Source: a virus
Lineage: Duplodnaviria > Heunggongvirae > Uroviricota > Caudoviricetes
Length of the DNA: 19,341 nucleotides
IMG/VR virus record: IMGVR_UViG_2700989509_000025
Location: 1-19,341 of that record
Direction: 5' to 3' (one strand)
Made by a program: the position numbers and the translations under genes. Positions within the stretch are counted from its first letter, which is position 1. Each line of letters starts with the position of its first letter. Shown in pieces: positions 1 through 18,105 of this stretch. The notes beneath the pieces are model-generated. The model was not told the origin of the DNA. It did not search any database and saw nothing but the letters and a program-made list of their open reading frames with translations.

Positions 1-1191
1 ATGGCGCAAAATCGCCGTTGCCAGACGGTCGGAAATAATCCCGCGGCGAGCCCATGAACTGAAATGGCTCGCCCTGTCCTGTGACGTCCAGGTGGCTGAG
101 CTGTCACGCCATTTCGAACCGTAATATCCGATACCCGGAATGTCCGGGTCTTCTTCCGGTTTGTTCGTCGGCACATTCACCCCGTTCTCATCCGTCATGA
201 ACGGTACGAAATGGATATTCTTTTCCGTTTTGTTTTTGTAGCTGCCGTACACCGTCTGGTACGTGGATTCGTTCTTCTGCTTCCAGAAATACGTCGTATC
301 TCCACATATCCAGGGAACACCGCCAGCAGAGCCACCGACGCACTGACCTGCCATATCCGCCAGGTCTGCACGGAATTTATCAACCAGCGCACCAAACTGT
401 GCTGCGTGATTTACCGGCGTACCGCCAAAATCAAATTCCCCCTGCATCCACACCACGGCAAACAGCACATTTTTCGGGTTCTTCTTCAGTGCTGCTTTTG
501 TTCGACCGATAAGGTCCTTATACAGCGGCTTGTCCACACCCCAGCGGGTTGAATTCTCCGAGGCACCACTCGCGTCACTGTATGTGCCATCAGCTCCGGT
601 GGTGAACGCTGAACCACCACGACAGCACGGAACCAGCAGAATGCCCGCATTCGCCGGTATAAACGGCAGCAGTTTTTTGGCGATATGCAGCCCCTGCCCC
701 ACGGTTCCGTACTGCCCCTTTGACAGGTCCGCTTTCGGATGGTTAAGGCGGCTCATGTCCTGCACATCATGCAGACAATGGTCCGCCGGAATGATGTCGT
801 TATATTTGCATGCTGCACCGCCCGGTGTCACCGTACTGCGGCGCGCCAGCTGCTTAATACGCAGGTCCGGACGGTCATATGTCTCCGGCAGCGGAAGGCC
901 TTCACCATATGCCATGCTGTTTGACTGCCCCGCCAGAACCACAACAAAGTAATACTCCGGGTCTCTGGTGGCGCTGATTACTGTGCCTTCTCCATCCGAC
1001 GGCTTCACCACAACAGGTGTGCTCACATCACCTTCTGCGACAATCGCCTGAATAAGTGCTGCGCCATCATCCGTATACGAAGAAAACGGCCCGCCGTATG
1101 GTTGCCATCCTTCACGAATTTTTTGAGCAAGTGCATCAGCAAGGTCTGACGGCGACACCGCCCTGACCACATCGTAGTGTTTAAATGCCAT
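1..1191 (-). CDS. NanS-p-like sialate O-acetylesterase (DUF1737-like N-terminus plus SGNH/SASA hydrolase domain); C-terminal end cut by window edge
   Basis: Manually translated open frame from ATG at 1189-1191 (SD GGAGGA just upstream) running to position 1 with no stop; absent from ORF track because no stop in window. Translation begins MAFKHYDVVRAVSPSDLADALAQKIREGWQPYGG and contains VVLAGQSNSM (GQSN block of SGNH hydrolases). Plus-strand ORFs 211..552 and 530..952 lie antisense to it. Confidence 0.7.
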   Translation of the reverse strand, partial: MAFKHYDVVRAVSPSDLADALAQKIREGWQPYGGPFSSYTDDGAALIQAIVAEGDVSTPVVVKPSDGEGTVISATRDPEYYFVVVLAGQSNSMAYGEGLPLPETYDRPDLRIKQLARRSTVTPGGAACKYNDIIPADHCLHDVQDMSRLNHPKADLSKGQYGTVGQGLHIAKKLLPFIPANAGILLVPCCRGGSAFTTGADGTYSDASGASENSTRWGVDKPLYKDLIGRTKAALKKNPKNVLFAVVWMQGEFDFGGTPVNHAAQFGALVDKFRADLADMAGQCVGGSAGGVPWICGDTTYFWKQKNESTYQTVYGSYKNKTEKNIHFVPFMTDENGVNVPTNKPEEDPDIPGIGYYGSKWRDSSATWTSQDRASHFSSWARRGIISDRLATAILRH

Positions 1192-1378
1192 GAATCCTCC
1201 CGGCCGGGATAATGTTGTGAGTCAGATAAGGGGCGGGCTGAAGTCCGGAAGTTACAGGACAATGACAGAAGGAAGACTACAGCCCGCAATACGAAAAAGG
1301 CCGCGCAGTTGCGCAGCCTTATAAACCCTGGTTAAAATCCACACGATAAAAATGACAATGCAAGTATCTCATGCTGTT

Positions 1379-1403
1379 GCCCGAACCTACTCGGGCTTTT
1401 TTT
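1379..1403 (+). terminator. Intrinsic terminator-like hairpin (plus orientation)
   Basis: GCCCGA-acctac-TCGGGC stem-loop followed by TTTTTTT. Confidence 0.5.
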
Positions 1404-1408
1404 GCATG

Positions 1409-1434
1409 TAAAAAGGCTCCTGCGATGAGGAGCC
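1409..1434 (-). terminator. Intrinsic terminator-like hairpin (minus orientation) downstream of the tRNA cluster
   Basis: On minus strand GGCTCCT-catcgc-AGGAGCC followed by TTTTT; sits back to back with the plus-strand hairpin at 1379..1403. Confidence 0.5.
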
Positions 1435-1721
1435 TGGATATATGCCTAATCTCTGTATACAGCATGATGCCGGGTGCCTCCCGGTGAATTCTGCAATGAC
1501 CAGACAGAATCCGCAACTTGCCTATACAATACGCAACCAAACATCTGTCATTATGCCCCGCCGCCCAGGGGGATTCATCATGCAGGATTTTTTTAACAAA
1601 CGCTCAGCATGTCAGGCAACAGTCAACTACCTGAATTGTGAGGCATTTAACATTTCACTGTCCGGTGTCTTTCCTGTAATAAAAAGCCCGCAAAAGAGAG
1701 TCAGGGCAGATAAGTGTGGTG

Positions 1722-1798
1722 TGGCGCGTTGTACTGGATTCGAACCAGTGACCGATTGCTTAGAAGGCAATTGCTCTGTCCGGCTGAGCTAACAACGC
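1722..1798 (-). tRNA. tRNA-Arg (anticodon UCU)
   Basis: Minus-strand read GCGTTGT-TA-GCTC..GAGC-A-ATTGC-CTTCTAA-GCAAT-CGGTC-ACTGG-TTCGAAT-CCAGT-ACAACGC-G-CCA; perfect 7-bp acceptor stem, T-loop TTCGAAT, encoded CCA, anticodon loop CTTCTAA. Confidence 0.8.
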
Positions 1799-1811
1799 AT
1801 GATGCTGATAA

Positions 1812-1888
1812 TGGACTGCCATCGGGGACTTGAACCCCGCACAGCCAGCTTCGAAGGCTGGCGCTCTGTCCCGATGAGCTAATGGCGG
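1812..1888 (-). tRNA. tRNA-Arg (anticodon UCG)
   Basis: Minus-strand read CCGCCAT-TA-GCTC..GAGC-G-CCAGC-CTTCGAA-GCTGG-CTGTG-CGGGG-TTCAAGT-CCCCG-ATGGCAG-T-CCA; cloverleaf fits with one C-A mismatch at acceptor pair 2:71, so boundaries need tRNAscan confirmation. Confidence 0.65.
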
Positions 1889-1897
1889 TATGTGATA

Positions 1898-1973
1898 TGG
1901 TGGCCCTTGCTGGATTTGAACCAGCGACCTGGCGATTATGAGTCGCTCGCTCTCACCACTGAGCTAAAGGGCC
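1898..1973 (-). tRNA. ileZ: tRNA-Ile2 type (anticodon CAU; software will call Met-CAT), ileZ-like phage tRNA
   Basis: Minus-strand read GGCCCTTTAGCTCAGTGGTGAGAGCGAGCGACTCATAATCGCCAGGTCGCTGGTTCAAATCCAGCAAGGGCCACCA; closely resembles recalled E. coli ileX/ileZ-type tRNA; anticodon loop CTCATAA. Confidence 0.8.
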
Positions 1974-2011
1974 GGGAGCAGAATAATAACGGTCCGTAAT
2001 TAATTCCGCAA

Positions 2012-2036
2012 TAAAAAACCCGCTCAATGGCGGGTT
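2012..2036 (-). terminator. Intrinsic terminator between ORF6N gene and tRNA cluster
   Basis: On minus strand ACCCGC-cattga-GCGGGT followed by TTTTTT (plus strand shows A-run 2013..2018 before hairpin). Confidence 0.55.
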
Positions 2037-2131
2037 CTGGTAAAGTTCATGCGCTTGGTTCGCCTCGCGATACAGCTTTGCGAAGCGTACCGGGATTGAA
2101 GCAGTTTATGGCTAAAATTGCAAGAACTTTT

Positions 2132-2743
2132 TTAAAGCTGCATCAGCCTTTCCACCAGTTTATCTCTGCGAACAACAAACCAACCATTGGCTCTCGCCAG
2201 TTCCAGCCATGACTCAAGGGAAATAACAATATCATCATCCCGCAACTGAATTGTGGAAACAGTGACACCGCCTCGCTGATAACAGAGAACTCGCGTGTCG
2301 TAACTTTTCTGGCATGAAACTGGCGCTGACGGATCCTTTTGTCTGAAATAGCAGTCTTCCAGTCTTTCGAACACATCCCACGCCTGATCGGTTTCGAGCA
2401 TTTTGGCATGACGGGCTGCTCCGCGTTCTGTCCAGAGTATGAGGGAGCGGGCTTTCGGGGAAATTTGTAACCCTCTTAAAGATGGTTGCAAATTTTGTGA
2501 GTTACTTAAAGTAACCCGCAAATTTTGTGAGTAGTTTAAAGCTACCCGCAATTCTTTAAGGTCATTACCAACAACTTTGAAAAAGTGTTTCCCTTCAACG
2601 AAGCGTACTTTGTTCTCATGATGATTCTGGCGAATACGCACCGGCTCAGTGCCGTAAAGCTGCGCCAAAAGTTCGGTGGTAATAACAGGAATCTGGTTAT
2701 GGGTGATCGGGGAGAGAGTTTCAACAGAAATTTGAGTTGTCAT
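2132..2743 (-). CDS. ORF6N-domain protein (antirepressor/Roi/Bro-N-like N-terminal DNA-binding domain) with uncharacterised C-terminal domain
   Basis: 203-aa ORF; SD GAGGG about 7 nt upstream of ATG at 2743; N-terminal sequence (KVRFVEGKHFFKVVGNDLKEL ... ISPKARSLILWTERGAARHAKMLETDQAWDVFERLEDCYF) resembles recalled ORF6N-type domains; first gene after the PR'-like promoter and leader terminator. Confidence 0.6.
   Translation of the reverse strand: MTTQISVETLSPITHNQIPVITTELLAQLYGTEPVRIRQNHHENKVRFVEGKHFFKVVGNDLKELRVALNYSQNLRVTLSNSQNLQPSLRGLQISPKARSLILWTERGAARHAKMLETDQAWDVFERLEDCYFRQKDPSAPVSCQKSYDTRVLCYQRGGVTVSTIQLRDDDIVISLESWLELARANGWFVVRRDKLVERLMQL
2461..2560. repeat. Tandem ~30-bp direct repeats (3 full copies plus partial) inside the ORF6N gene, each with a near-palindromic TTTAAAG core
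   Basis: aaatttgtaaccctcttaaagatggttgc / aaattttgtgagttacttaaagtaacccgc / aaattttgtgagtagtttaaagctacccgc / aattctttaag...; translated on minus strand as 10-aa repeats LRVALNYSQN / LRVTLSNSQN / LQPSLRGLQI. Confidence 0.75.
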
Positions 2744-2902
2744 AATGACGCCCTCTGGTGGTTTCTTAATAACTCACCACCGACGACGCCAATCGTCTGG
2801 TGGTGAACTGTGCAGGGTTGGCGTAACCGGGAAACCGACCGGCGCGGATCTCTCCGCCCCCACACAGCCCACCATAATTCAGATGTGCGCGTGCATACGA
2901 CA

Positions 2903-2926
2903 ATAAAAAACACGCTCGCGGCGTGT
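2903..2926 (-). terminator. tR'-like intrinsic terminator of a short late leader transcript
   Basis: On minus strand ACACGC-cgcga-GCGTGT followed by TTTTTTATTG; about 55-75 nt downstream of the PR'-like promoter. Confidence 0.6.
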
Positions 2927-2987
2927 ATCTGTCGCGGTCTCTATCCAGGACGCCAATCCCGACGCCAGATTTTGCTGGCGCGTGAGG

Positions 2988-3017
2988 AATATAGCCCCGG
3001 ATAACAGATTGAGTCAA
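2988..3017 (-). promoter_or_regulatory. PR'-like late promoter (probable site of Q engagement)
   Basis: Minus strand TTGACT (3012..3017) - 18 nt - TATATT (2988..2993); the -35 overlaps the stop codon of the Q-like gene. Confidence 0.6.
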
Positions 3018-3568
3018 CAGACGGTTTTTAGATCCCCGGAAGAGAATGCATCACGCATCGGCAGATAGAGCATAAACTCTGCCATTTTCAACCACGCATC
3101 TATGCGATTACGGCACGTGGCGTAACACCACTCAGGGTGTGAATCATTCAGCAATTCAGCCATTTTTCGCTTAGTCATCCCCCGCCCTTCATATCGTTGC
3201 CGGAGGATACAAATCAATCCTGGGTGTTCTGCCAGCACTTCACTAATCACCCGATCAATGCATAACGCCTCTGCATCAGTACAATGCACCAGCCAGCTTT
3301 TTTGCTTGCCGTTGATCATATCCCGCAAAAAAGCCTCAAGTTCAGGTTTGTCCAGACCTGCTTTTTTCATCCTCCGGAGCGCCTCGTTAATTGCCGTTTT
3401 TGTCAGCTTTTTAGAGGTCAGCAACTGGTTGAACATATTTCCCGTCTTACCGCCGCCAATATACGACCAGCGCCCCCACATGCGCAGTTTTCCCTGAATC
3501 CAGACACTTTCCAGCGTGGTGAGACGAAGGTGTTCCCCGCTTTTGCCTGTATTTGTTGGGTAAATCAT
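3014..3568 (-). CDS. Q-type late antitermination protein (assignment from position and sequence character)
   Basis: ORF track gives 3014..3688; preferred start is internal ATG at 3568 (MIYPTNTGKSGEH...) with SD GGAAGG and ATGA overlap with the upstream gene stop. Lies between nin-region genes and a strong promoter plus short terminator; C-terminal MTKRKMAELL...RNRIDAWL looks like a sigma region-4-like HTH. Confidence 0.6.
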   Translation of the reverse strand: MIYPTNTGKSGEHLRLTTLESVWIQGKLRMWGRWSYIGGGKTGNMFNQLLTSKKLTKTAINEALRRMKKAGLDKPELEAFLRDMINGKQKSWLVHCTDAEALCIDRVISEVLAEHPGLICILRQRYEGRGMTKRKMAELLNDSHPEWCYATCRNRIDAWLKMAEFMLYLPMRDAFSSGDLKTVC

Positions 3569-3855
3569 AAATAACCTTCCTTTCTCCAGATTTCTTGTGT
3601 GCGAAAAACACCTTCTGCATGCATCAGGCGTAATTCTTCTTTGGTGTAATCGCTGGTTTTTACCCGCCCGTCGATTAAATCGTGGCATGAGCTACAGGCA
3701 ATCGCTGCCTGCATATCGTGTGGTTTTGTCGCTGTTCCGCACGTCCCCGCCAGCCTGTAATGCGCCAGCACAGAAGTTTCGGGATTGTGATTGCAGTAGC
3801 CAGGAATTCTGACGGTGCACATCTGCCCCCGCGCCGCTTTACGTAAATCCACCAT
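3565..3855 (-). CDS. YbcO-like (DUF1364) Cys/His-rich putative nuclease of the nin region
   Basis: 96-aa ORF MVDLRKAARGQMCTVRIPGYCNHNPETSVLAHYRL...ACSSCHDLIDGR; resembles recalled DLP12 YbcO; stop overlaps Q start (ATGA). Confidence 0.6.
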   Translation of the reverse strand: MVDLRKAARGQMCTVRIPGYCNHNPETSVLAHYRLAGTCGTATKPHDMQAAIACSSCHDLIDGRVKTSDYTKEELRLMHAEGVFRTQEIWRKEGYL

Positions 3856-4454
3856 TACGCAAACTCCAGTAACTGCGCGGCCACATTTTCGACTTCCTCC
3901 GGAGAGGAAAATTTACGGAACAGGATCCAGTTCCACAGCACATTCAGTACAGATTTATAAACCTGCTGAAACACGGTTTCGTCCATGTTCGCAAATGCGA
4001 TAGATTTTGCCCTGCGCCCACGACTACCATCAGGATAAATATGCTCGGTGTAAAATCCGGCCTGAATGGTTACCCATTCGCGAAAAGCGTCAAAGGACTT
4101 GAGTAAGGCCGTATCCCGGGTTCTGCAAGTCGTAACGGTGTTAAGGTATTGCTCTGCGGCATCACTCAGGGCTGGCGTATGTTCCCGACCTACTGATTCG
4201 CACAGGAAATCAACGAAACCGGACACCAGTTCTCGTTCGCGAGGCGTGATCGCCCCACCGTTCGGAGTCCAGTAATCGAATCCCAGTTGCAGGAGTTTGA
4301 AAAAACGCTTGTGGAATGCGTAGTTACGCACACGCTTAAAGTCTGCGTGTATCCACTCACCGATTTTGATTTGATGCAAAAAATCGCAACTCTCCGGCGT
4401 CGCCGGGAGAAGTAATCCGGAAGAGGTTTGTTTGACCAGTTGTATATGCGCCAT
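3855..4454 (-). CDS. nin-region phage protein of unknown function (possibly DUF1367-type)
   Basis: 199-aa ORF with SD GGAGAA 6 nt upstream of ATG at 4454; stop overlaps next start (TAATG). Family name from recollection only. Confidence 0.55.
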   Translation of the reverse strand: MAHIQLVKQTSSGLLLPATPESCDFLHQIKIGEWIHADFKRVRNYAFHKRFFKLLQLGFDYWTPNGGAITPRERELVSGFVDFLCESVGREHTPALSDAAEQYLNTVTTCRTRDTALLKSFDAFREWVTIQAGFYTEHIYPDGSRGRRAKSIAFANMDETVFQQVYKSVLNVLWNWILFRKFSSPEEVENVAAQLLEFA

Positions 4455-4525
4455 CGTAGTTCTCCGCTGGCGCAGTAGAATGGGTGTTCAGCCCGTTATG
4501 TAGTATACCAGAATTAATGCCAATA

Positions 4526-4777
4526 CTAACAGGATGCTCTGACTCGCAATTCATCCAGCAGTTTATCATTTCCCATAATGTCACTTACCCTCATCGGTAA
4601 AAAAATTGCCTTTCGACCATTACGATACATCATTGATTTTGGGGTTTCAGGGAAGTAATCCATTTCGACTATAACTGACAGGTCATCACGACGTATGACT
4701 GCGTATTTGCAACTAAATAGTTTCTTTATTTTTTCCACGATGCCTCCGAGTTTATAAGTACAAACGGTTATATCCAC
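4526..4777 (-). CDS. Hypothetical small protein (start uncertain)
   Basis: 83-aa ORF in AT-rich spacer; codon at 4777 is GTG with no clear SD; internal ATGs also lack SD. Confidence 0.25.
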   Translation of the reverse strand: MDITVCTYKLGGIVEKIKKLFSCKYAVIRRDDLSVIVEMDYFPETPKSMMYRNGRKAIFLPMRVSDIMGNDKLLDELRVRASC

Positions 4778-4920
4778 ATAGAGACAAAAATATTAATCTG
4801 AAAAATATTTATTTCACGCCGTATATTTGATTATTTAATGTGCAGGTACAATGACTTTTATTTTTTGTTGTGTATATAATCAAATATATGGTTATTTTTC
4901 ACCCTGCGCATTCAGCGCGC

Positions 4921-4946
4921 AACAAAAAACCCGCCGAAGCGGGTTT
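4921..4946 (-). terminator. Intrinsic terminator downstream of hok
   Basis: On minus strand AAACCCGC-ttcg-GCGGGTTT followed by TTTTTTGTTG. Confidence 0.6.
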
Positions 4947-5013
4947 AGTGCGGGTGCGTTAAGGATGCCTGACACATGAGAGGTGGCGAGGGATTTCTCC
5001 CCCGCCTGGTCTC

Positions 5014-5169
5014 TTACTCCTCAGGTTCGTAAGCTGTGAAGACAGCGACCTCCGTCTGGCCGGTTCGGATTCGTACCTCGCAGAGGTCTTTCCTCGTTAC
5101 CAGTGCCGTCACTATGACGGTTAAACAGATGACGATCAGGGCGATTAACATCGCCTTTTGCTGCTTCAT
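5014..5169 (-). CDS. hokD: Hok/Gef-family type I toxin (HokD/RelF-like small membrane peptide)
   Basis: 51-aa product MKQQKAMLIALIVICLTVIVTALVTRKDLCEVRIRTGQTEVAVFTAYEPEE matches recalled HokD; SD AAGGAG 9 nt upstream of ATG at 5169. ORF track extends in frame to 5226 (19 extra codons). Confidence 0.8.
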   Translation of the reverse strand: MKQQKAMLIALIVICLTVIVTALVTRKDLCEVRIRTGQTEVAVFTAYEPEE

Positions 5170-5345
5170 AGCCTGCTTCTCCTTGCCTTTCGGCACGTAA
5201 GAGGCTAACCTACGTGTGTAGAGCATAGATATGGCCTCAGATTAATGTTAAGCGTCTTGCCGGACGCGTAATGTTAACTGGGGCTTTTCTCTATCTGCCT
5301 TTTGGTGTTCATGCCTGAGGCAGATAGCCTCAAGCACCCGCAGCA

Positions 5346-5374
5346 ATTCTAACTATCCAATAGATCAATGCCAA
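5346..5374 (-). promoter_or_regulatory. Candidate sigma70 promoter for hok mRNA
   Basis: Minus strand TTGGCA (5369..5374) - 17 nt - TAGAAT (5346..5351); would give a ~170-nt structured leader containing a 9-bp inverted repeat (CTATCTGCC...GGCAGATAG). Confidence 0.4.
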
Positions 5375-5726
5375 CTTCTTTTCCTGCAACATCTCTCATC
5401 ATAAGTGACCCAAATTCATCCAATCAGCACAAAAGAAACATTTAAAGCGTGAATGCTACCGAACGTTCATTTCAATTACATCGTTTTGATTTTTAACAGT
5501 TTTCACCTCAACAAATCAAATGGCATTAGCATTCATCATGGAAGAAAGACTGATAAAAATGATCATTTTCAATGACTTATGATCACACCGGGTATTGCCA
5601 AGTCATTCCTTTTACGCCAGGATACCCACAAGTGAGTAGTCGAGGAGAGTTTGCCAATTTTTGCGATATAAATTTCAATGCCCGAAGAACCATTAATTGT
5701 TAATTGATTCTGTATAAGGTATTAAC

Positions 5727-6824
5727 ATGACAATTTCATATATTCCTATTCTGAAAGCGAAACGTTCTGAGTTATCAGCTTTATCGCAGCTATCCATTGA
5801 AAAGAAATCAAAAATTTTGCCATTACTCGAAATTGAACCAGTGCCAATTGACCCTGATTCAGGTATTGCCTTAAAGAGTTATAACGAGACTCTTATAGAG
5901 TTCGGAAAGAAAGTCTCAAAATCTTGCTCAGATATGCAAGGTGTTTATATTGATGGATTATTAATTGAAGAGCATTTTATTTCTCCTGAAGATCATTACC
6001 CTATAATAAATGCGGTTAATCAAGTTAGAGATATGGGGATAAGAGTTATTCCTGTCAGTTCACCAACTCGCCCATCTAACTATAAAAGAGCGATTGATGA
6101 ATTAATGCAGAATGAAATATGCTTGAGATTAACCACGTTAGATCTGGTTAACCCACAATTAATAACGCATTACATTAATCATCTGGGAATTCCTTTATCA
6201 AATATTGATATAATTATTGACTTAAGAGATGAGTTAACCGAGGATAAAATTAATTCCGGCGAACTATATACTTTGGCAATGGGATTGATAAACAATCTGG
6301 CGCACCTCAATGAATACAGAAAAGTGATTCTTTCTGGGGGTTCATTTCCTACAGATCTCAGTGATATTTCTGTTGGTCTATATTCTCAACCTCGAATCGA
6401 GTGGATTTTATGGCAGAGTTTAATGAATAGAAAAGAACTTGCCAGAAATGTGATTTATAGTGATTATGGAGTACAGCACCCCGACTTTAATAGGCTTTCG
6501 ACGCGATTCCCTAGCGTATCTGCCAGCGTCAGATACTCTGGAGATAATGACTTTTGGGTATTTCGAGGAAGAGTAGCTAATCGCTTTGGTTATGAACAAT
6601 ATGGTAAACATAGTGAGGATATTCTTGCTCATCGAGAATATTCAGGGCCTACATTCTGTGCGGGAGATAGAGACATAGAATATTATGCAAACGAGTATCA
6701 AGCCTACAAAGCCAATCCCTCTGGTAACTATAAATTTGGTAGCCCAGAGGTATGGCGTAGGATTGGGCAAAACCATCACATAACTAAGGTTGTTGAGCAA
6801 CTCGCCACTCTTTACGGGCTTTAA
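5727..6824 (+). CDS. Beta-family-like protein (P4 Beta / sce7725-type, by recollection); candidate defense component
   Basis: 365-aa ORF in markedly AT-rich DNA; N-terminus MTISYIPILKAKRSELSAL; SD AAGG about 8 nt upstream; 3' end overlaps the convergent gene by 41 bp. Confidence 0.6.
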   Translation: MTISYIPILKAKRSELSALSQLSIEKKSKILPLLEIEPVPIDPDSGIALKSYNETLIEFGKKVSKSCSDMQGVYIDGLLIEEHFISPEDHYPIINAVNQVRDMGIRVIPVSSPTRPSNYKRAIDELMQNEICLRLTTLDLVNPQLITHYINHLGIPLSNIDIIIDLRDELTEDKINSGELYTLAMGLINNLAHLNEYRKVILSGGSFPTDLSDISVGLYSQPRIEWILWQSLMNRKELARNVIYSDYGVQHPDFNRLSTRFPSVSASVRYSGDNDFWVFRGRVANRFGYEQYGKHSEDILAHREYSGPTFCAGDRDIEYYANEYQAYKANPSGNYKFGSPEVWRRIGQNHHITKVVEQLATLYGL

Positions 6825-7362
6825 GTTTAACTCGAACAGCTTCACGAAGCTCGCCAACATCCATACTATTGGCGAGTTTTGACCATAAGACGCGTTTAGG
6901 TTTATTTTTCAAATTCTGTAGCTCCCCTACATCACTTAATAGGGAAAGCAATTCATCTTTCCAAAGAAGCATTGTTAAGGAAAGTTTGTCCACTTGTGGA
7001 TTCAACTTGCTAGTTCGAATTGTTTTTAAATGGATACCTTGCCGTGCACCTTGCGTAACTTGCTTTATCCCCCACCATGATGGAACTATGCTTAAAGCAT
7101 CATAAAGATGGCAATCAGAGACAACCAAAGTTACTTTATCCATCACTGATGAGTAATGTTGCACCTGCGCTGGTAATCTGAGCAAGTTATCACTCTTGCT
7201 CTTCAACTCATAACCATGTATAAGCCCATTGATCACTGCTATATCAGCTCTGCTAGCCCCTAGATTCATCGTAAACTCATCAATGATTAGGGTGTCAGGA
7301 TCTTTATGATGATCTCTCAGAATCTTGGCATGCACAGCCTTTCTTACATCAATGTCTCTCAT
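6784..7362 (-). CDS. sce7726-type protein with PD-(D/E)xK-like nuclease motif; candidate defense component
   Basis: 192-aa ORF, AT-rich; contains D (in LIIDEF) followed about 20 aa later by E-L-K (GYELKSKSD), the spacing of PD-(D/E)xK cores; also WWGI and LLW blocks I associate with sce7726-type proteins. Weak RBS. Confidence 0.55.
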   Translation of the reverse strand: MRDIDVRKAVHAKILRDHHKDPDTLIIDEFTMNLGASRADIAVINGLIHGYELKSKSDNLLRLPAQVQHYSSVMDKVTLVVSDCHLYDALSIVPSWWGIKQVTQGARQGIHLKTIRTSKLNPQVDKLSLTMLLWKDELLSLLSDVGELQNLKNKPKRVLWSKLANSMDVGELREAVRVKLKARKEWRVAQQP

Positions 7363-7684
7363 ACCATAGTTGCGCTTTCATCGACTCTCTCAAGCCATGA
7401 TTCTATATCATGGTTCGCATGAATGCCATTTGATATGACCAGTGGTTAAACATTGCACAGAAAAGTGGATGTGTATTTTAACAAAAGCAATGACGGCTAA
7501 CCATGTTGGTATGTCGATAAAATGTTTCAACGTAAGCATTATCTGTTCCGCCCTTTCGGGCGGCCTCCTGATGTTCTGAGGGTGCAGAAATCCCTCCGGT
7601 TAAGGATTAAATTTTATTTACAGAACTGAATTTAATTATTCAGATATACGTATCTGTAACCTTACTAACCTACTCACTGGATGC

Positions 7685-8158
7685 CTATTTCATAAAAATA
7701 ATCCAGTGGGTTTTATCGTTTTTTCCTGTTCGTTGACCGATAACAGGTTTTCTGTCGGTCAGTGCCAATATCTGGCGAACAGGTATTTGCGTTTCATTCC
7801 ATTTAAAAATCAGAACGCCGTATGGACGCAACACACGAAAGGCTTCTTTAAATCCCTGCCGCAAATCATCACGCCAGGTATCTTTATTCAGCCGTCCATA
7901 TTTCTTTCCCATCCAGGCGTTATCACCAACACGCTCAAGATGCGGAGGATCGAATATAACCATCGAAAAAGATGCGTCTGCAAATGGTAGTGCACGAAAA
8001 TCAGCTATCAGATCAGGACTGATAATCAGGCGTCGTCCATCACACAATGTGTGCTCTTCCTTTCTGATATCGCTAAATATCGCCCGGTCGTCATTCTTAT
8101 CGAACCAGAACATGCGACTGCCACAGCACATATCAAGAATGGTTGCCGGTGCACTCAC
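7685..8158 (-). CDS. Small phage DNA methyltransferase (Dam-like, N6-adenine or N4-cytosine class)
   Basis: 157-aa ORF with GTG start preceded by AGGAGG; motif I-like ILDMCCGSR and motif IV-like VIFDPPHL; GTGA overlap with upstream gene. Confidence 0.65.
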   Translation of the reverse strand: MSAPATILDMCCGSRMFWFDKNDDRAIFSDIRKEEHTLCDGRRLIISPDLIADFRALPFADASFSMVIFDPPHLERVGDNAWMGKKYGRLNKDTWRDDLRQGFKEAFRVLRPYGVLIFKWNETQIPVRQILALTDRKPVIGQRTGKNDKTHWIIFMK

Positions 8159-8571
8159 TGCGCTACCTCCTGAAAATTACCCTGATAGAAAGCCAGTACA
8201 CGCTGCATAGCTTCGCTCTTCCGGCACTCGCGACAGATTATATTCAGGCGCCTGTCGTAGCGGCGTATTTCTCCGTCTGGTAATGAATAAACCAGGTCCG
8301 GGTCGCTCTTTTTTTTCACTGCTGCTTTCGACATCTTTTTGCGGGCCTTTATCCAGTCCTTACGTGCCTGTTCAGACGGAAATAACCCGTAGCCGGAGTT
8401 GTATAAATCGCCACTGGCAACCAGCTCTCTGGCAAGAACACTCATCAGATATCTTGTCGCACCTGTCTTGGCTTCCAGTTGCCGTAACGTCTCGCGACCG
8501 CTCAGACGTACAAGTTCAACAACCTGCCCTTTAATTTTTTCCCGCTCTTCTGGTGTAAATACTTTTGCCAT
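8155..8571 (-). CDS. Phage hypothetical protein
   Basis: Track ORF 8155..8586 uses TTG; preferred start is ATG at 8571 preceded by GGAGG (8 nt); 138 aa, basic, C-terminal ICRECRK. Confidence 0.55.
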   Translation of the reverse strand: MAKVFTPEEREKIKGQVVELVRLSGRETLRQLEAKTGATRYLMSVLARELVASGDLYNSGYGLFPSEQARKDWIKARKKMSKAAVKKKSDPDLVYSLPDGEIRRYDRRLNIICRECRKSEAMQRVLAFYQGNFQEVAQ

Positions 8572-8586
8572 AAGCGCCTCCGGCAA

Positions 8587-9357
8587 TCACTTTTCCGATA
8601 CAACACGGCGGGAAGAATCAGTAATCTGTCGAACAATATCCCGGTGCTTGTTCAGCTCCCGCAGCGCGGCGCAGACTCGCTCCCACTTCTGAACATCACT
8701 TTTCGCCCTGCGCAGCGCCAGGTTTGCCCTGCGAAGGGACGGAAAAATCAGCTCATCTGCTTGCGTTTCGGTAAACGATGGCAACGGCTGCACAATGTCC
8801 GCCACAGTTTCTGTTTTAATTTCTTCCTGTGTTGCGGCTTCCCGGACTGGTAACGCAGCACCTGCTGGCTGAGGAAAGGCCTTACCATCACTTTCCGTTA
8901 CCAGCGCGGCTTTCGGCTCTGCTGGTAAATTATCGCCCGGCATGCAGTAACGAAATCTACCGTTCTGATTAACGCGTGCCAGCCGCCCCGTTGCGGTTAC
9001 CACCGCCAGCGTGGAAGCAACCTTGCGAGTACTGACACCGAACTTACCCGCTATTTCTTCACAGGTTTTAGCCCCCTCCTGAGCGATAAACTCAATCATC
9101 ATGTTAGCGCTAACTTTTGGAGCGACCTCTTCGGTCAGCATATCCTGTGTTTCAGATTTTACTGGCCGCTCTTCGGTTACCCGGGATTCACCTTCGACAG
9201 CCAGAAACCAGGTGTGACCCGTTTTATCAACAACGCCATTTTTTTTGAGCTCCCACAGTTCGTTGATAACTTCTTCACGGCTGATATCAATTCGTGCCGC
9301 CAGTTCAACAGAATTGGCTTTTCCCATCGCTTTCAGTGCATGTAATACGGTTTCCAT
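8587..9357 (-). CDS. Phage protein with N-terminal winged-helix-like domain (possibly DUF1627-type)
   Basis: 256-aa ORF, SD GAGGTGA 8 nt upstream; N-terminus METVLHALKAMGKANSVELAARIDISREEVINELWELKKNG looks like a wHTH. Confidence 0.55.
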   Translation of the reverse strand: METVLHALKAMGKANSVELAARIDISREEVINELWELKKNGVVDKTGHTWFLAVEGESRVTEERPVKSETQDMLTEEVAPKVSANMMIEFIAQEGAKTCEEIAGKFGVSTRKVASTLAVVTATGRLARVNQNGRFRYCMPGDNLPAEPKAALVTESDGKAFPQPAGAALPVREAATQEEIKTETVADIVQPLPSFTETQADELIFPSLRRANLALRRAKSDVQKWERVCAALRELNKHRDIVRQITDSSRRVVSEK

Positions 9358-9382
9358 CGAAAATTCACCTCGTTAAAAATTC

Positions 9383-10123
9383 TCACATACCCTGACGTCC
9401 AACGTTTGACCGCCAGCTCTCCCAGTTAAAATTCACCCAACGACCACCGTTCATGGTCATCCGGTCCATAATCCTCTCACCAAGAAGCGTGCTCATTGCG
9501 GCATGATTCAGGTTTGTCAGCATCCCGACACTGCGCAGTGATGCCGTCCGGCGGTCAACAATCTGGTGCAGTACCACCTGCTCGTTTTTCGTCTCACGCT
9601 GGATGCCAATTTCGTCAAGAACCAGGAGGTCCACTTCGCACAGTTCACGCAAAAATTTTTCGCCTGACTGCCCGTCGTCATAGCTGGCGTGCAGGGCGCT
9701 CATAACATCAGCCACGGTAACCACAATCACTGTCTGACCGTCTTTCAACAGGCGATTCCCGATAGCTGCCGCTAAGTGATTCTTCCCGGTACCAGGTTTT
9801 CCGCTGAACGCAAAATTTGTACACCCGGTCATCAGTTCATCGGCGATGGATTTCGCCTGGCTTAACGCGTATCGCTGGCCGTCGTTCTGCACCTGGTAAT
9901 TCGCAAACGAGCATTTACGGTGCAACGGCTGGATGCCTGAGCGATTCAGAATTTTTTCCACCCGCAACTGACAATTCAGGCGGTTGATCTCCTCGCTACG
10001 TTTCTGGCCTTCAGCAAGTTGCCACTCGCGCCACTCCGCAACCGTTCTGAATGGGGCGGTTACATGTGGTGGGGTCAGTCTGCGGATACGCTCCAGAACG
10101 CCTCCTGTCGCAATATTTTTCAT
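9383..10123 (-). CDS. DnaC-like replicative helicase loader (IstB-like AAA+ ATPase; YdaV-like)
   Basis: 246-aa ORF with Walker A FSGKPGTGKNHLAAAIG and Walker B DLLVLDEIG; immediately follows the replisome-organizer gene. Confidence 0.8.
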   Translation of the reverse strand: MKNIATGGVLERIRRLTPPHVTAPFRTVAEWREWQLAEGQKRSEEINRLNCQLRVEKILNRSGIQPLHRKCSFANYQVQNDGQRYALSQAKSIADELMTGCTNFAFSGKPGTGKNHLAAAIGNRLLKDGQTVIVVTVADVMSALHASYDDGQSGEKFLRELCEVDLLVLDEIGIQRETKNEQVVLHQIVDRRTASLRSVGMLTNLNHAAMSTLLGERIMDRMTMNGGRWVNFNWESWRSNVGRQGM

Positions 10124-10129
10124 GGCCTG

Positions 10130-10918
10130 TTACCCCCTGAAGCCTGGCGGGATCGCACTGTCCGGCAACGAGACGGTGTTAACCTGTCGGAGCAACGTCT
10201 CAGGCCGAACACCTTTCGGTGCGAACAAGCCCTGGTATTCATTGGCAATGCTGTGTCGAATCACCTGCTCAGGTGTAAAACCCTGCTGACGGAATTTTTC
10301 CAGTTCCCGTATCGCCCCGTTAGCGCCCTGCTCCGTTCGAATCGGTTTTCGCAATGCCTGCCTGAACTGAACCCACTCATGCCAGAGTGTTTCCGGCAAC
10401 CAGTCAGGCAGCTCGATAGCCTCCGGCTCGAATTTTTTAGACGCTCGTTTTTGGCGAGGGGGATTTAGGGGGAGATCAGTATTTATATCTTCCTCTTCCT
10501 CTTCCTCTGGTAACGCTTTTTGATCCGTTTGTGTAACGCTGCCAGCGTTACCTTTTCGTTTCAGTTCGCGTATTTTTGTAACTCGCTCGTTTGTAACCGC
10601 CCGTTTTTTAGAGCTTTTTCCGTTATGACGTTCAAAGTTAGGTAGAGAAAGCCCACCGTCATTTTCGACCAGCCATCCAACCTGAATTAACGCATCAGCA
10701 AAACCAGCCATAAAAGTGATGCGATCTATTGCACTTTTTGTAACGCCGCGAGCGTTACAATCTGCATTACCGTCTATCATTTGTTGATCCGCCCATGCCC
10801 AGAAGCGAATAACCTTCCCTAATGCGGCATCTGGATCAATATTCAGAATCTCAGCAAGCCTGAATATTTCCGGCTTATCCGGCGTAATAACCTCGAGCTT
10901 TATCCAGTTTGAAGCCAT
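10130..10918 (-). CDS. Replication initiator / replisome organizer (lambda O-like function; YdaU-like)
   Basis: 262-aa ORF with acidic linker PEEEEEEDIN; position between cII-like gene and DnaC-like loader; contains two copies of a 19-bp palindrome, with a third just upstream. Confidence 0.65.
   Translation of the reverse strand: MASNWIKLEVITPDKPEIFRLAEILNIDPDAALGKVIRFWAWADQQMIDGNADCNARGVTKSAIDRITFMAGFADALIQVGWLVENDGGLSLPNFERHNGKSSKKRAVTNERVTKIRELKRKGNAGSVTQTDQKALPEEEEEEDINTDLPLNPPRQKRASKKFEPEAIELPDWLPETLWHEWVQFRQALRKPIRTEQGANGAIRELEKFRQQGFTPEQVIRHSIANEYQGLFAPKGVRPETLLRQVNTVSLPDSAIPPGFRG
10533..10551. repeat. 19-bp palindrome GTAACGC-N5-GCGTTAC, copy 1 (inside initiator gene)
   Basis: gtaacgctgccagcgttac; extra GTAAC half-sites at 10510..10516, 10578..10582, 10593..10597. 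Confidence 0.8.
10740..10758. repeat. 19-bp palindrome GTAACGC-N5-GCGTTAC, copy 2 (inside initiator gene)
   Basis: gtaacgccgcgagcgttac. Confidence 0.8.
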
Positions 10919-10931
10919 TTGTTTTCACCTT

Positions 10932-10950
10932 GTAACGCTCGCAGCGTTAC
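10932..10950. repeat. 19-bp palindrome GTAACGC-N5-GCGTTAC, copy 3 (noncoding, 14 nt upstream of initiator start, next to its SD)
   Basis: gtaacgctcgcagcgttac. Confidence 0.8.
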
Positions 10951-10995
10951 ATTTAACTGATACCGAACAAAACAATCCGGCACGATTAATTTCAA

Positions 10996-11418
10996 TCAAT
11001 GCACTACGACAGAATCGCCGGGCGACCCACCACCGCTGAAATGTGCTTTCCGGTAAACGGCCTGGACTGCATCATCATGCGCATCAATTGCCGTACTCAA
11101 CGCTTCCTGCGCCGCCAGTAATGCACGGCGTTCCAAGGTATCGAAGATGCAGAGTCGGTGACGCAGCTCGCGCGGAAGAATTGCCAGAACCGCAGGGATC
11201 AGTTTCTGAATTTTTTCCCTTTGCGCTTTCGTTTCACCTTTCAACCAACGGTGATAGATATTCTGCTGATTGTTCCAGTCCTTGCCTGGTACAAGGGGCA
11301 ATTCGCCGCCCCCCTGGCGCAGATATTCTTCAGTAATTGCGTTAGCGACCCACGCCTGCCCTTTTTCGGCTGCCAGGGCTAACAACACTGATTCGATGTG
11401 CTCATGCCTGATTTTCAT
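10996..11418 (-). CDS. YdaT-like protein (cII-position gene of Rac-type immunity region)
   Basis: 140-aa ORF directly downstream of cro-like gene with ATGA overlap; same position and size as recalled Rac ydaT. Confidence 0.6.
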   Translation of the reverse strand: MKIRHEHIESVLLALAAEKGQAWVANAITEEYLRQGGGELPLVPGKDWNNQQNIYHRWLKGETKAQREKIQKLIPAVLAILPRELRHRLCIFDTLERRALLAAQEALSTAIDAHDDAVQAVYRKAHFSGGGSPGDSVVVH

Positions 11419-11657
11419 GAATCAACCGCTCCTATGCTGTTTTCGCTATGCTTACCGTCTGGGGGGAATACATCGTCAAGTCCACAATGAGCGCCAAGCC
11501 GATTAAGGGTAGAAACAATTTTTCTGCACTCCTCTAGTCCAGGGGTACGAAAATTTGCTTCGTAATTTGCCAGTCGGCTTTGTATCCACCCTAACTGAAC
11601 AGCAAGTTGTCTTTGAGACAGCCCAAGCTGTTTTCGATATGTTGAAATTTTGTTCAT
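11415..11657 (-). CDS. Cro-like HTH regulator (YdaS-like)
   Basis: 80-aa ORF, HTH segment LGLSQRQLAVQLGWIQSRLANYE; SD GGAGG 7 nt upstream; divergent from repressor gene. Confidence 0.7.
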   Translation of the reverse strand: MNKISTYRKQLGLSQRQLAVQLGWIQSRLANYEANFRTPGLEECRKIVSTLNRLGAHCGLDDVFPPDGKHSENSIGAVDS

Positions 11658-11753
11658 TGAAAACCTCCGATGACAATTTTAAACACATCTTGTGTTATAT
11701 GGTCAAGCTGTTTTGTGTTTTGTGTAAATCACGATTCGTGATACAAGGATGCA
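11658..11753. promoter_or_regulatory. Divergent immunity promoter/operator region
   Basis: Minus-strand promoter TTGACC (11701..11706) with TAAAAT/TTAAAA around 11676..11682; palindromes AACACA-tct-TGTGTT (11682..11696) and ATCACGA-t-TCGTGAT (11728..11742). Confidence 0.55.
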
Positions 11754-12173
11754 ATGGAAAAAGAAAACGAAAAAATTGCCGCTAGTAGGCTCAATGACAA
11801 AATTGCAATGCGTCTTAAAGAGCGCAGGCAGAAGCTTGGTTTATCTCAAGGAAAACTTGCTGAAATCTGCGGATGGACGCAATCGCGTATAGGTAACTAT
11901 GAGGCGGGTAGCAGAAATGTTGGAGTGCATGACGCTGTCGTATTGGGAAAGGCACTTGGCATATCTCCTCCTGAGCTCCTCTTTGGAGAACAGGAATCTT
12001 CTGAATTGTGGTTAAATGAATCCCAACGAAAACTTCTTGAGTTGTTTAACCAGCTACCGGGCTCAGAACAACAACGAATGATTGAGCTATTTGAAGTCCG
12101 GCTAAAAGAAATCGATGAGTATGTAGAAAAATATTTGAGAGGCAGGCTTAAAGATAATCCCCCACCGGAGTAA
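11754..12173 (+). CDS. Prophage repressor, XRE-family HTH (RacR-position), no obvious S24 peptidase domain
   Basis: 139-aa ORF, HTH LGLSQGKLAEICGWTQSRIGNYEAG; SD AAGGA upstream; divergent from cro-like gene. Confidence 0.7.
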   Translation: MEKENEKIAASRLNDKIAMRLKERRQKLGLSQGKLAEICGWTQSRIGNYEAGSRNVGVHDAVVLGKALGISPPELLFGEQESSELWLNESQRKLLELFNQLPGSEQQRMIELFEVRLKEIDEYVEKYLRGRLKDNPPPE

Positions 12174-12203
12174 TGATCTTGCTATCACAGTAATATGCCA
12201 ATC

Positions 12204-12228
12204 AGCCCGCTATCAGCGGGCTTTTTTT
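12204..12228 (+). terminator. Intrinsic terminator after repressor gene
   Basis: AGCCCGC-tatca-GCGGGCT followed by TTTTTTT. Confidence 0.7.
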
Positions 12229-12270
12229 GTACCATCATCATATGACACCCACCACAAAACACATTTCGTG

Positions 12271-12299
12271 TTGACACAAGAAAACGCATTGTGTTTAAT
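12271..12299 (+). promoter_or_regulatory. PL-like early-left promoter with overlapping operator-like palindromes
   Basis: TTGACA (12271..12276) - 17 nt - TTTAAT (12294..12299); flanked by AACAC-atttc-GTGTT and ACACAAG...TTGTGT inverted repeats. Confidence 0.55.
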
Positions 12300-12479
12300 A
12301 AGCATATCCAAACAACGCCCCACCAGAGAACGGCAGGACAATACCTCGAGTTATCCAGCCACTGAACAGGGCTAAGTAGCCAGCCTGAGGCATACGAACA
12401 TGACGGCAGTTGTTGATTGATACAAAGCGCAGTAGATAAAACGTTCCGCCACCCGGCGTTAAGGGGAAATGAGGTCAAC

Positions 12480-12632
12480 ATGGATACTATCGATCTTGGC
12501 AACAACGAATCTCTGGTATGTGGCGTGTTTCCCAATCAGGACGGCACATTCACCGCCATGACGTATACCAAAAGCAAATCGTTTAAAACCGAAGCTGGCG
12601 CACGTCGCTGGCTTGCCAAAAATACCAGCTAA
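12480..12632 (+). CDS. Small early-left protein (YdaF-like)
   Basis: Internal ATG at 12480 of track ORF 12417..12632, preceded by GAGG; 50 aa MDTIDLGNNESLVCGVFPNQDGTFTAMTYTKSKSFKTEAGARRWLAKNTS. Confidence 0.45.
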   Translation: MDTIDLGNNESLVCGVFPNQDGTFTAMTYTKSKSFKTEAGARRWLAKNTS

Positions 12633-13040
12633 ACCATTTATTGGATTAATTCAATATTCTTGCTGTAGGGGTATAGCCGAGGCCACCAAAGCCCGGAGGT
12701 GGTGAAATAAAACCGGGCACAACACGAAGGCGCATTTCCGGTATCCATAAAGAGTCGGTCTTGTCTGTTAAATTTAAATGGTGGGAGTGCGCCTCCGGTT
12801 GTAAATAACGACATTGCTATGTGTAGTCTTTGGCGGCATCAGTTCTACTCCGTGGCTGCCCTGCCGCCCCTTTTTAAAGTGAATTTTGTGATGCGGTGAA
12901 TGCGGCTAAGCGCACGCGGCACAGTTAAAAGCATCAGTGTTATGGGTGGATTATCCGGCGTTAATTGTTAACTGGTTAACGTCACCTGGAGGCACCAGGC
13001 ACCGCATCGACAAAATTCATTTGTAAAAATGGAGATAATT

Positions 13041-13262
13041 ATGATTGCTCATCACTTCGGAACTGATGAAATACCACGTCAGTGTGTGACTCCTGGCGAT
13101 TATGTTCTTCATGAAGGTCGGACATATATCGCCTCGGCAAACAATATTAAAAAGCGAAAACTTTATATTCGTAGCCTGACTACAAAAACATGCATTTCTG
13201 ACTGCATGATTAGAGTCTTCCTCGGTCGTGATGGTTTACCTGTAAAGGCGGAGTCATGGTAA
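13041..13262 (+). CDS. kilR: KilR-like cell-division inhibitor
   Basis: 73 aa from ATG at 13041 (SD GGAG); [35 protein letters not shown]... matches recalled Rac KilR. Confidence 0.75.
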
Positions 13263-13432
13263 TGACTAAGAAAATAAAATGTGCTTATCACCTTTGCAAT
13301 AAAGAAATTGAAGAAAGCAAAATCATTACAAGACCACTTCATTTCATGCGTGGAGTTATACCAACGACGGAAATGAAAAAATATTGTAGTGAAATCTGTG
13401 CCGAAAAAGACCAGATGGCACACGAACTTTAA
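13262..13432 (+). CDS. YdaE-like small Cys-rich (zinc-binding) protein
   Basis: Hand-found 56-aa ORF (below track cutoff): [56 protein letters not shown]; start overlaps kilR stop (TAATG). Confidence 0.55.
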   Translation: MTKKIKCAYHLCNKEIEESKIITRPLHFMRGVIPTTEMKKYCSEICAEKDQMAHEL

Positions 13433-13506
13433 TTAACTGACTATCCGAAACTGAATTTATGCCAGCAATGGCAGGGATTCGCTCAACCTTAATTAAGGAG
13501 AAAAAC

Positions 13507-13782
13507 ATGATTACCAGTTATGAAGCCACTGTTGTTACTACTGATGACGTTGTTCACGAAGTTATCCTGGAAGGAAAACTCATTGGCTACGTGATTAAAA
13601 CAGAAAATAAAGAAACCCCATTCACCGTGGTTGATATCGACGGTCCATCAGGCAACGTTAAAACACTTCACGAAGGTGTAAAAAAAATGTGCATGGTGCA
13701 CATCATAAAGAATATTCCAGCAGAGAAAAAAGACAGGATTATGGCAACTCTGATTGAGATGGAACAAAAAGGCGAAATCTGA
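13507..13782 (+). CDS. racC: RacC-like protein
   Basis: 91 aa from ATG at 13507 preceded by AAGGAG; MITSYEATVVTTDDVVHEVILEGKLIGYVIK... matches recalled Rac RacC. Confidence 0.75.
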   Translation: MITSYEATVVTTDDVVHEVILEGKLIGYVIKTENKETPFTVVDIDGPSGNVKTLHEGVKKMCMVHIIKNIPAEKKDRIMATLIEMEQKGEI

Positions 13783-13882
13783 ATGGGAAAAAGGCCTGCA
13801 CTCAGCGCAGGCCTGAGTCAAGAACCCGGGACATTTATTCATCACTCGCAATAATTTTAATCTGAGTTGAGGTTAAAAAACA

Positions 13883-17357: not shown

Positions 17358-17413
17358 TTCAGCCTGGCGGTGTAATGCACCGCCAACTTGAAATATTTTT
17401 TATGAGAAAAATT

Positions 17414-17608
17414 ATGAGATATGACAATGTTAAACCATGTCCATTTTGTGGTTGTCCATCAGTAACGGTGAAAGTCATTTCAGGATATTACCGAGCGAAG
17501 TGTAACGGATGCGAATCCCGAACCGGTTATGGTGGAAGTGAAAAAGAAGCACTCGAAAGATGGAATAAACGAACCACTGGAAATAATAACGGAGGTGTTC
17601 ATGTATAA
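17414..17608 (+). CDS. ralR: RalR/Lar restriction-alleviation protein
   Basis: 64 aa from internal ATG at 17414: MRYDNVKPCPFCGCPSVTVKVISGYYRAKCNGCESRTGYGGSEKEALERWNKRTTGNNNGGVHV. Confidence 0.75.
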   Translation: MRYDNVKPCPFCGCPSVTVKVISGYYRAKCNGCESRTGYGGSEKEALERWNKRTTGNNNGGVHV

Positions 17609-17789: not shown

Positions 17790-17888
17790 ATTGCATTGTA
17801 TTCAAATTAAAACTTCATAGCTGATTATTAATAATCAACATCGGGCGTCAATTTCAGTCTAACATTGGCGCCTGCCAGAGGTGATGCG

Positions 17889-18104: not shown

Positions 18105-18105
18105 T

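Follow-up and report, generated by a model that had tools for sequence, protein, structure and literature searches.

The gop-beta-cII system of P4 (Ghisotti 1990, as cited by Rousset 2022, PMC9122126; named 'Gop_beta_cll' in DefenseFinder and PADLOC) protects against lambda and P1, and its Gop protein is toxic without beta (Rousset 2022, PMC9122126). A phage accessory gene triggers cell death via this system (bioRxiv 10.1101/2023.04.06.535777). The published PD-lambda-2 system consists of three co-directional genes and has no sce7726 component; its beta-like protein, PD-lambda-2C, is required for defence, and B is the toxic component (Vassallo 2022, PMC9519451). Here we analysed a convergent gene pair, one gene of the beta family and one of the sce7726 / P4-cII family, in a 19,341-nucleotide stretch of DNA from a virus of the Caudoviricetes (IMG/VR record IMGVR_UViG_2700989509_000025, positions 1 to 19,341; the whole stretch is called the window below). 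The two genes overlap tail to tail, and this overlap and its reading register are conserved in relatives from many phyla.

In P4 gop-beta-cII, homologs of beta and cII are arranged convergently as in the window, and the system also lies in a mobile-element hotspot. P4 cII scores 151 bits against the NCBIfam sce7726 model (residues 6-184), above the family cutoff, P4 beta is a Beta_protein, and the PADLOC gop, beta and cll models each recognise their P4 counterpart. Unlike the window's protein, P4 cII (locus L002) carries a C-terminal extension of ~80 aa (residues 185-264) that matches no family. The P4 genes also do not overlap, in contrast to those of the window, but are separated by a 27-nt gap, which in the region L002 1720-1749 holds a terminator with a perfect 10-bp stem and U6, for cII only. 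The window contains a beta homolog and a convergent cII homolog, and gop is absent upstream: positions 5227-5726 hold no open reading frame (ORF) of at least 50 aa, and the best tblastn match with P4 gop has E 1.6.

The window also contains component C of PD-lambda-2, as its beta protein is closest to PD-Lambda-2_C, without A and B. A tblastn search of the window with a homolog of the HigB-like A protein (from locus L078) found nothing, and a search with a homolog of the B protein, an Xre helix-turn-helix protein with an M78 peptidase (from L076), gave a best E of 9. Among the 73 non-redundant loci analysed below, PD-Lambda-2_B lies upstream of beta in 14 (with A in 9 of these loci as well), and sce7726 overlaps the beta 3' end there (for example L076 4641-6023 and L078 5851-6234). 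Thus, a fourth, convergent component may often belong to PD-lambda-2, published as a three-gene system. A plasmid search with PD-lambda-2 B had as its top match a Deefgea sequence with A and B and no beta, which is uninformative on the co-occurrence of sce7726.

Judged by these comparisons, the window carries the bare two-gene core common to gop-beta-cII and PD-lambda-2. Beta and sce7726/cII would then form an always-paired, always-convergent cassette, to which gop in one system and HigB and the Xre-peptidase in the other are add-ons, and the conserved unit behind two experimentally validated anti-phage systems would have to be redefined. Published PD-lambda-2 and models such as Gop_beta_cll may accordingly miss a component or the widespread two-gene form. 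The gene families and the related defence systems are already known; among the papers returned by literature searches on sce7726, gop-beta-cII or PD-lambda-2, none describes a conserved interlock of the two genes or their role as a universal core.

The gene pair and its overlap

The beta protein matches the Pfam Beta_protein model (PF14350) over profile positions 1-341 of 342, with 178.3 bits (cutoff 27) and E 3.8e-52. It matches the PADLOC model PD-Lambda-2_C (PDLC03983) with E 1.8e-41 over residues 4-362 and the P4 'beta' model weakly (E 2e-4), and RefSeq names the gene product 'beta family protein'. Its AlphaFold2 model has a predicted local distance difference test score (pLDDT) of 91.7 and shows a TIM-barrel with C-terminal helices, the last of which spans residues 340-363; the Foldseek matches are TIM-barrel proteins with E values from 2e-5. 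Alignment of homologs shows numerous invariant charged residues and a conserved C-terminal pattern, G[SN]xxxW...NHH[IL]TxVVxQL[AS]xL. No family came out of the NCBIfam scans, either for beta or for the partners from Sorangium, Nannocystis, P4 and a Gordonia phage, and the identity of beta with the 'sce7725' family could not be shown.

The sce7726 protein covers positions 1-183 of 184 of the NCBIfam model sce7726_fam (NF033832) with 191.1 bits (cutoff 70) and matches the PADLOC 'cll' model with E 2.4e-28. The Pfam family Phage_P4_cII (PF26915) is the precomputed assignment on all homologs. Residues D40 and E52-x-K54 are invariant in the homolog alignment, and the C-terminal pattern LKxRxxWR is conserved. 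The AlphaFold2 model (pLDDT 91.4) has its tail, residues 188-192, predicted as disordered. The best Foldseek matches in the PDB are AF1548, SfsA, a splicing endonuclease, XPF and Can2; they are weak (E 0.01-0.5, template modelling score ~0.3), and all have restriction-endonuclease-like folds. It is reasonable, though unproven, to regard sce7726 as PD-(D/E)xK nuclease-like from this model and these residues, in line with the preliminary description of the locus, which had called the two genes beta-like and nuclease-like. A sequence search of the PDB found a solved structure for neither protein.

The two ORFs overlap as listed in Table 1, which confirms from the coordinates the convergent 3' overlap already described. 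On the plus strand the overlap encodes beta residues 353-365 and the stop, and on the minus strand sce7726 residues 180-192 and the stop. Beta ends in N H H I T K V V E Q L A T L Y G L and sce7726 in V K L K A R K E W R V A Q Q P. In this register, codon position 1 lies opposite position 1, position 2 opposite 3, and position 3 opposite 2. An identical pair with the same 41-bp overlap is annotated in E. coli O121 RM8352 by the Prokaryotic Genome Annotation Pipeline (PGAP)/RefSeq and in phage Rac-SA53 by GenBank. A true stop earlier than annotated, raised as a possible objection, was found in neither gene; as both ORFs match their family models end to end, none is hidden. The observed overlap is real.

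Table 1 Features of the beta/sce7726 cassette, in window coordinates
Feature	Position	Strand	Details
beta family gene	5727..6824	+	365 aa; ATG start; stop TAA 6822-6824 (ORF list)
sce7726 / P4-cII family gene	6784..7362	-	192 aa; ATG start; stop TAG 6786-6784 (ORF list)
Tail-to-tail overlap	6784..6824	both	41 bp
Doubly constrained junction CTC GCC A	6801..6807	both	entropy over 62 loci
Candidate intrinsic terminator for beta mRNA	6845..6881	+	CGAAGCUCGCCAA-n11-UUGGCGAGUUUUG; 21-57 nt past beta stop, inside sce7726 ORF
Sigma-70-like promoter candidate for sce7726	7400..7429	-	ATGGCA-18-TAGAAT; ends 38 nt before ATG; 9/12 matches (consensus scan)
AT-rich non-coding region upstream of beta	5227..5726	+	500 bp; no ORF of at least 50 aa

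Conservation of the overlap and its register

To analyse the distribution of the arrangement, we used conserved-peptide patterns to gather 80 genome loci encoding sce7726 relatives (39-71% identity) from Proteobacteria, Firmicutes, Actinobacteria, Acidobacteria, Myxococcota, Chloroflexota, Melainabacteria and the candidate phyla radiation (CPR). A beta homolog is present in 77 of the 80 loci and is convergent with sce7726 in all 77. The genes overlap tail to tail in 75 of these 77 loci, by 11-167 bp, with gaps in the other two, and each overlap length is 2 mod 3. Among IMG/VR contigs found with sce7726 as the seed there were 41 unique pairs; every pair is convergent, the overlaps measure 11-110 bp in an unchanged register, and gaps occur only in P4-like elements and one Photobacterium-type locus. 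When the search was seeded from beta, each of the 23 complete loci likewise had sce7726 convergent and overlapping, with the register unchanged at identities as low as 23%. Genes gp32 and gp33 of Gordonia phage Powerball overlap by 89 bp.

The non-redundant loci form 40 clusters at 60% identity, and the register is kept among sequences less than 50% identical, from Proteobacteria to Firmicutes, Actinobacteria phages, Chloroflexota and CPR. Because convergent orientation, overlap and register are all conserved over 40 clusters from many phyla, the overlap is, on this comparative evidence, more than chance or local accident.

Conserved convergent gene overlaps in prokaryotes were reportedly described by Rogozin in 2002. 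In a later survey, 7% of well-characterised overlaps were convergent pairs, the long convergent ones that were credible were few and mostly conserved in very close species only, and many long overlaps in databases were misannotations (Palleja 2008, PMC2478687). The last observation would favour the view that our overlap is due to chance or to faulty annotation, for example a wrongly called stop, a frameshift or an ORF that is spurious. However, the 3' ends are fixed by stop codons, both ORFs run the full length of their family models, and overlap and register recur in dozens of divergent loci; the comparative data already refute this explanation, and we consider it practically untenable. The register in the window is the one commonest among longer natural convergent overlaps ('phase 1' in bioRxiv 10.1101/2025.11.07.687268). 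In contrast to the long convergent overlaps surveyed in 2008, which are conserved mainly among close species, the beta/sce7726 register is kept over many phyla. The pair thus offers a clean, checkable convergent overlap with a register maintained over very long evolutionary distances, of a kind that earlier surveys rarely found.

The register is fixed between defined residues. The distance from the beta His350 codon to the sce7726 Trp186 codon is exactly 33 nt in 62 of the 73 non-redundant loci, and the remaining overlapping loci have spacings of 36, 57 or 72 nt, that is, whole-codon differences. Per-position entropy over the 62 loci shows third positions of the plus strand free to ~6800 and those of the minus strand free from ~6807, with both frames constrained within 6801-6807. 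On the plus strand these seven bases encode beta L359 and A360 and begin the T361 codon with its first base, and on the minus strand they encode sce7726 W186 with the first two bases of the R187 codon. The TGG codon of Trp186, which reads CCA on the plus strand, forces beta codon 360 to be NCC (Ala, Ser or Thr) and codon 361 to be ANN, and the beta alignment at these codons agrees exactly with this constraint. The effect of double coding on protein sequence can therefore be read directly here, as one Trp codon fixes two residues of the partner.

The beta stop has Leu180-Lys181 of sce7726, which are invariant, on its antisense strand. With a Leu codon that ends in T or C, the T-N-A read at this site is a stop, and many loci have their beta 3' end at the corresponding position (locus coordinate 3539). 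Opposite the stop of sce7726 are beta Thr353-Lys354. The conserved C-terminal cores of the two proteins meet within ~2 codons (W186-R187 opposite L359-A360-T361), and the tails beyond the junction have a median of 5-6 codons, whereas the frequency of stops in those frames predicts a mean run of ~19 codons. As the tails are shorter than this expectation, an explanation by selection for a long overlap was rejected.

Because the cores meet within ~2 codons, the tails are short and the sce7726 tail is predicted to be disordered, we conclude from the alignments that purifying selection on both genes maintains the overlap as an ancestral interlock, and that a long overlap is not favoured in itself. 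The last conserved helix of each protein is encoded on opposite strands in one fixed register that leaves no intergenic DNA, and each ORF extends a few codons into the conserved coding sequence of its partner until a chance stop. Such an arrangement would persist by lock-in, as any insertion or deletion at the junction would damage both proteins. P4 may have escaped the interlock through its C-terminal extension of cII and its terminator.

Transcript ends and antisense complementarity

Since each mRNA has to reach its own stop codon, the two full-length mRNAs must, by their ORF coordinates, be complementary over at least 41 nt. The statement in the preliminary description that each mRNA is antisense to the 3' end of the other thus follows for full-length mRNAs. 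It had also reported that no terminator hairpin is visible between the genes. This stands in so far as the overlap leaves no 'between', while a strong hairpin followed by UUUU, inside sce7726, had been missed (Table 1). The hairpin has a perfect 8-bp core, formed by CUCGCCAA and UUGGCGAG, and a folding free energy (dG) of -17.9 kcal/mol (z -6.9), and 0/200 shuffled sequences fold equally well. The beta mRNA probably ends at this hairpin and U-run, which would likely leave ~100 nt of complementarity with the sce7726 mRNA.

Similar sites are enriched at this place in the family. Beta-sense hairpins followed by a T-run cluster 60-119 nt past the Trp anchor, within sce7726, in 35/72 loci, compared with 2-19/72 in other 60-nt bins. 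Beta-sense hairpins with dG <= -12 occur in the same zone in 17/72 loci, compared with 0-6 in other bins and 5/72 on the opposite strand of the same DNA. This enrichment is suggestive only, and it makes internal termination of the beta transcript plausible. A corresponding terminator for the sce7726 transcript inside beta showed no enrichment (13/72 loci, with 6-9/72 in controls), and none was found in the window. Having no visible terminator, the sce7726 transcript would be expected to run antisense into beta.

RNAalifold gave no consensus structure at the overlap on either strand over the 62 ungapped loci. A homologous RNA element common to the whole family was therefore rejected, as the window hairpin is not conserved either, and only a positional enrichment of lineage-specific hairpins is left. 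Where the genes are separated by a gap, a terminator is present in P4 and absent in the Xenorhabdus vietnamensis locus (L014) and in L015.

We then propose the following account, which we think is probably right. The overlap would be a frozen coding interlock, complementary mRNA 3' ends would be its unavoidable consequence, termination would necessarily fall inside the ORF of the partner, and the beta transcript would probably be terminated inside sce7726. Reciprocal dampening, by RNase III cleavage of the duplex or by polymerase collision, would be a likely side effect and is unnecessary to explain the conservation.

Several points weigh against this account. The pattern-based collection of loci may favour an interlocked subfamily, and the junction took whole-codon insertions at least 8 times (the spacings of 36, 57 and 72 nt), hence it is not absolutely frozen. 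The candidate terminator of the window has only 4 U and is absent at the homologous position in the nearest enterobacterial relatives (L005-L012, L021). The enrichment of terminators is inflated by kinship, as 9 of the 17 strong sites come from Xanthomonadales. The overlap, its conservation, its register and the double constraint are read directly from the loci, and the statements at the RNA level are inferred from them. Finally, a universal convergent orientation over such distances could mean that the arrangement was selected for regulation, and lock-in and selection for regulation cannot be distinguished from sequence alone.

The overlap could accordingly be a selected regulatory device, in which the two mRNAs titrate or destroy each other by RNase III cleavage in both coding ends and by transcriptional interference. 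Such a device would set the ratio of beta to sce7726 or form a switch, for example with lytic transcription in the sce7726 direction silencing beta. No locus examined departs from the convergent orientation, and this holds also for P4 and the PD-lambda-2-type loci, where extra genes are found only on the beta side; the overlap is lost in a few lineages only. At least 41 nt of perfect complementarity is unavoidable and ~100 nt is likely; RNase III needs a duplex of ~20 bp, and therefore this length would be sufficient. The sce7726 transcript, if it lacks a terminator, should read antisense through beta, and in both E. coli prophage contexts sce7726 is oriented with the phage operon and beta against it. 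However, the length of the overlap is variable and its tails fall short of the chance expectation, no conserved RNA structure is present, and terminators that would limit antisense read-through from beta seem to have evolved in many lineages. P4 gop-beta-cII, moreover, has a gap with an efficient-looking terminator, and the cloned system protects against lambda and P1 (PMC9122126; the P4 gap in that clone was not confirmed). We regard a selected regulatory device as possible but rather doubtful.

The idea of such a device goes back to the preliminary description, which had suggested that the overlap could provide mutual repression of the two genes. Our results do not support this proposal, as the double coding constraint at the junction fully explains the conservation and the tails are no longer than expected by chance; from the sequences, mutual antisense repression is plausible but unproven.

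Convergent RNAs that overlap at their 3' ends are known from type I toxin-antitoxin loci such as txpA/RatA and bsrG/SR4 of B. subtilis, where the duplex is a substrate of RNase III. The beta/sce7726 pair resembles these loci in its convergent transcription and in complementarity confined to the 3' ends. It differs in that they pair a non-coding RNA with a small toxic peptide, whereas beta and sce7726 are two conserved folded proteins, and the resemblance is a 'works like' hypothesis only. It is tempting to speculate that the interlock is an RNA-level switch spanning phyla, in which an obligatory 3' duplex makes the two mRNAs mutually exclusive. It would then be the counterpart, between two proteins, of type I toxin-antitoxin control, and gop-beta-cII and PD-lambda-2 immunity would have it as their true conserved core. 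We consider this unlikely. If it were true, strong one-sided transcription, such as lytic read-through by an infecting or induced phage in the direction of sce7726, would abolish beta expression and set the nuclease free. Since complementarity of the two mRNAs is unavoidable, the cassette lends itself naturally to the question whether 3'-end antisense pairing of protein-coding mRNAs regulates bacterial immunity.

Beta loss, cassette mobility and genomic context

In E. coli PEC209, beta is split by the insertion sequence (IS) IS1, and sce7726 is intact and identical. In Xenorhabdus koppenhoeferi (L013 3001-4810), sce7726 stands alone, with beta replaced by unrelated co-directional ORFs. This locus retains the first part of the spacer found in X. 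vietnamensis, where the two genes are separated by a 39-nt gap. It is the only solo sce7726 seen, and it belongs to a lineage that had already lost the overlap. The gap in X. vietnamensis together with the loss of beta in its close relative fits an interlock that keeps the pair together.

These genotypes suggest that beta loss is tolerated. If beta were the antitoxin of sce7726, sce7726 should not be kept without it, and both PEC209 and X. koppenhoeferi keep it; this comparison covers natural genotypes only. The PEC209 genotype argues against an unrestrained lethal effector. The idea that the overlap restrains a toxic effector thus finds no direct support in either genotype or in the related systems, where the toxins are Gop (P4) and PD-lambda-2B, and not cII or beta. 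Some viral contigs (L128, 3063-4182, and L110) also carry a frameshifted or rearranged beta beside an intact sce7726.

The overlap may instead be kept by selection for linkage and compactness of a mobile cassette, with shared DNA preventing recombination or deletion from parting a potentially harmful nuclease from its partner, and with the moron kept small. The cassette is indeed highly mobile, as it occupies two different hotspots in lambdoid prophages of E. coli and is found in actinophages and many phyla, and solo sce7726 occurs only where the overlap had already been lost. On the other hand, 41 bp saves almost no space and convergent genes require two promoters. Since an intact sce7726 is viable beside a beta split by IS1, separating the two is not obviously lethal. 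This explanation also overlaps heavily with lock-in and is hard to separate from it. We consider selection for linkage and compactness quite improbable as the reason for the overlap.

The cassette of the window is a moron in a Rac-like lambdoid prophage. It is flanked by replication genes (ydaU/ydaV, DUF1627, DUF977 and a methyltransferase gene) on one side and by hokD and the nin/Q region on the other, and the G+C content falls to 35-42% over the cassette. The sce7726 gene of the window is co-oriented with the early operon and beta is opposed to it. This allele is present in 93/5426 complete E. coli genomes (>=80% coverage).

A second beta/sce7726 allele of E. coli (L085 3134-4763; also L086 and L087) encodes proteins of 206 aa and 355 aa, and its sce7726 is ~53% identical to that of the window. 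It occupies a different lambdoid hotspot, between Rz of the lysis genes and the terminase gene Nu1, and has a 59-bp overlap in the same register.

IS elements cluster round the cassette, in PEC209 (L089 1828-4239) and in loci L001 (7612-8774) and L003 (3070-3835). An IS3 lies upstream of beta in O121 RM8352, and an IS1 lies 165 bp upstream of sce7726 in Rac-SA53.

The neighbouring 70-aa ORF at 5014-5226 of the minus strand is a mok/hokD type I toxin gene, named HokD by RefSeq at the equivalent place, and a strong sigma-70-like site lies on the same strand at 5374-5346. A genuine antisense-regulated toxin locus is thus located 500 bp from the cassette. As hokD is on the other strand, the AT-rich region between hokD and beta must contain the beta promoter, and a consensus scan of this region gave no convincing match on the plus strand. 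The sigma-70-like candidate upstream of sce7726 (Table 1) is weak evidence for a promoter, as the number of such sites in the region equals the expectation from shuffled sequences. In the interval from sce7726 to the methyltransferase gene lies a G+C-rich hairpin, CCGCCC-GAAA-GGGCGG (7548-7563), which lacks a U-run on both strands. It might be what is left of a terminator; alternatively, as E. coli matches to the cassette end near 7612-7643, it might mark the boundary of the cassette.

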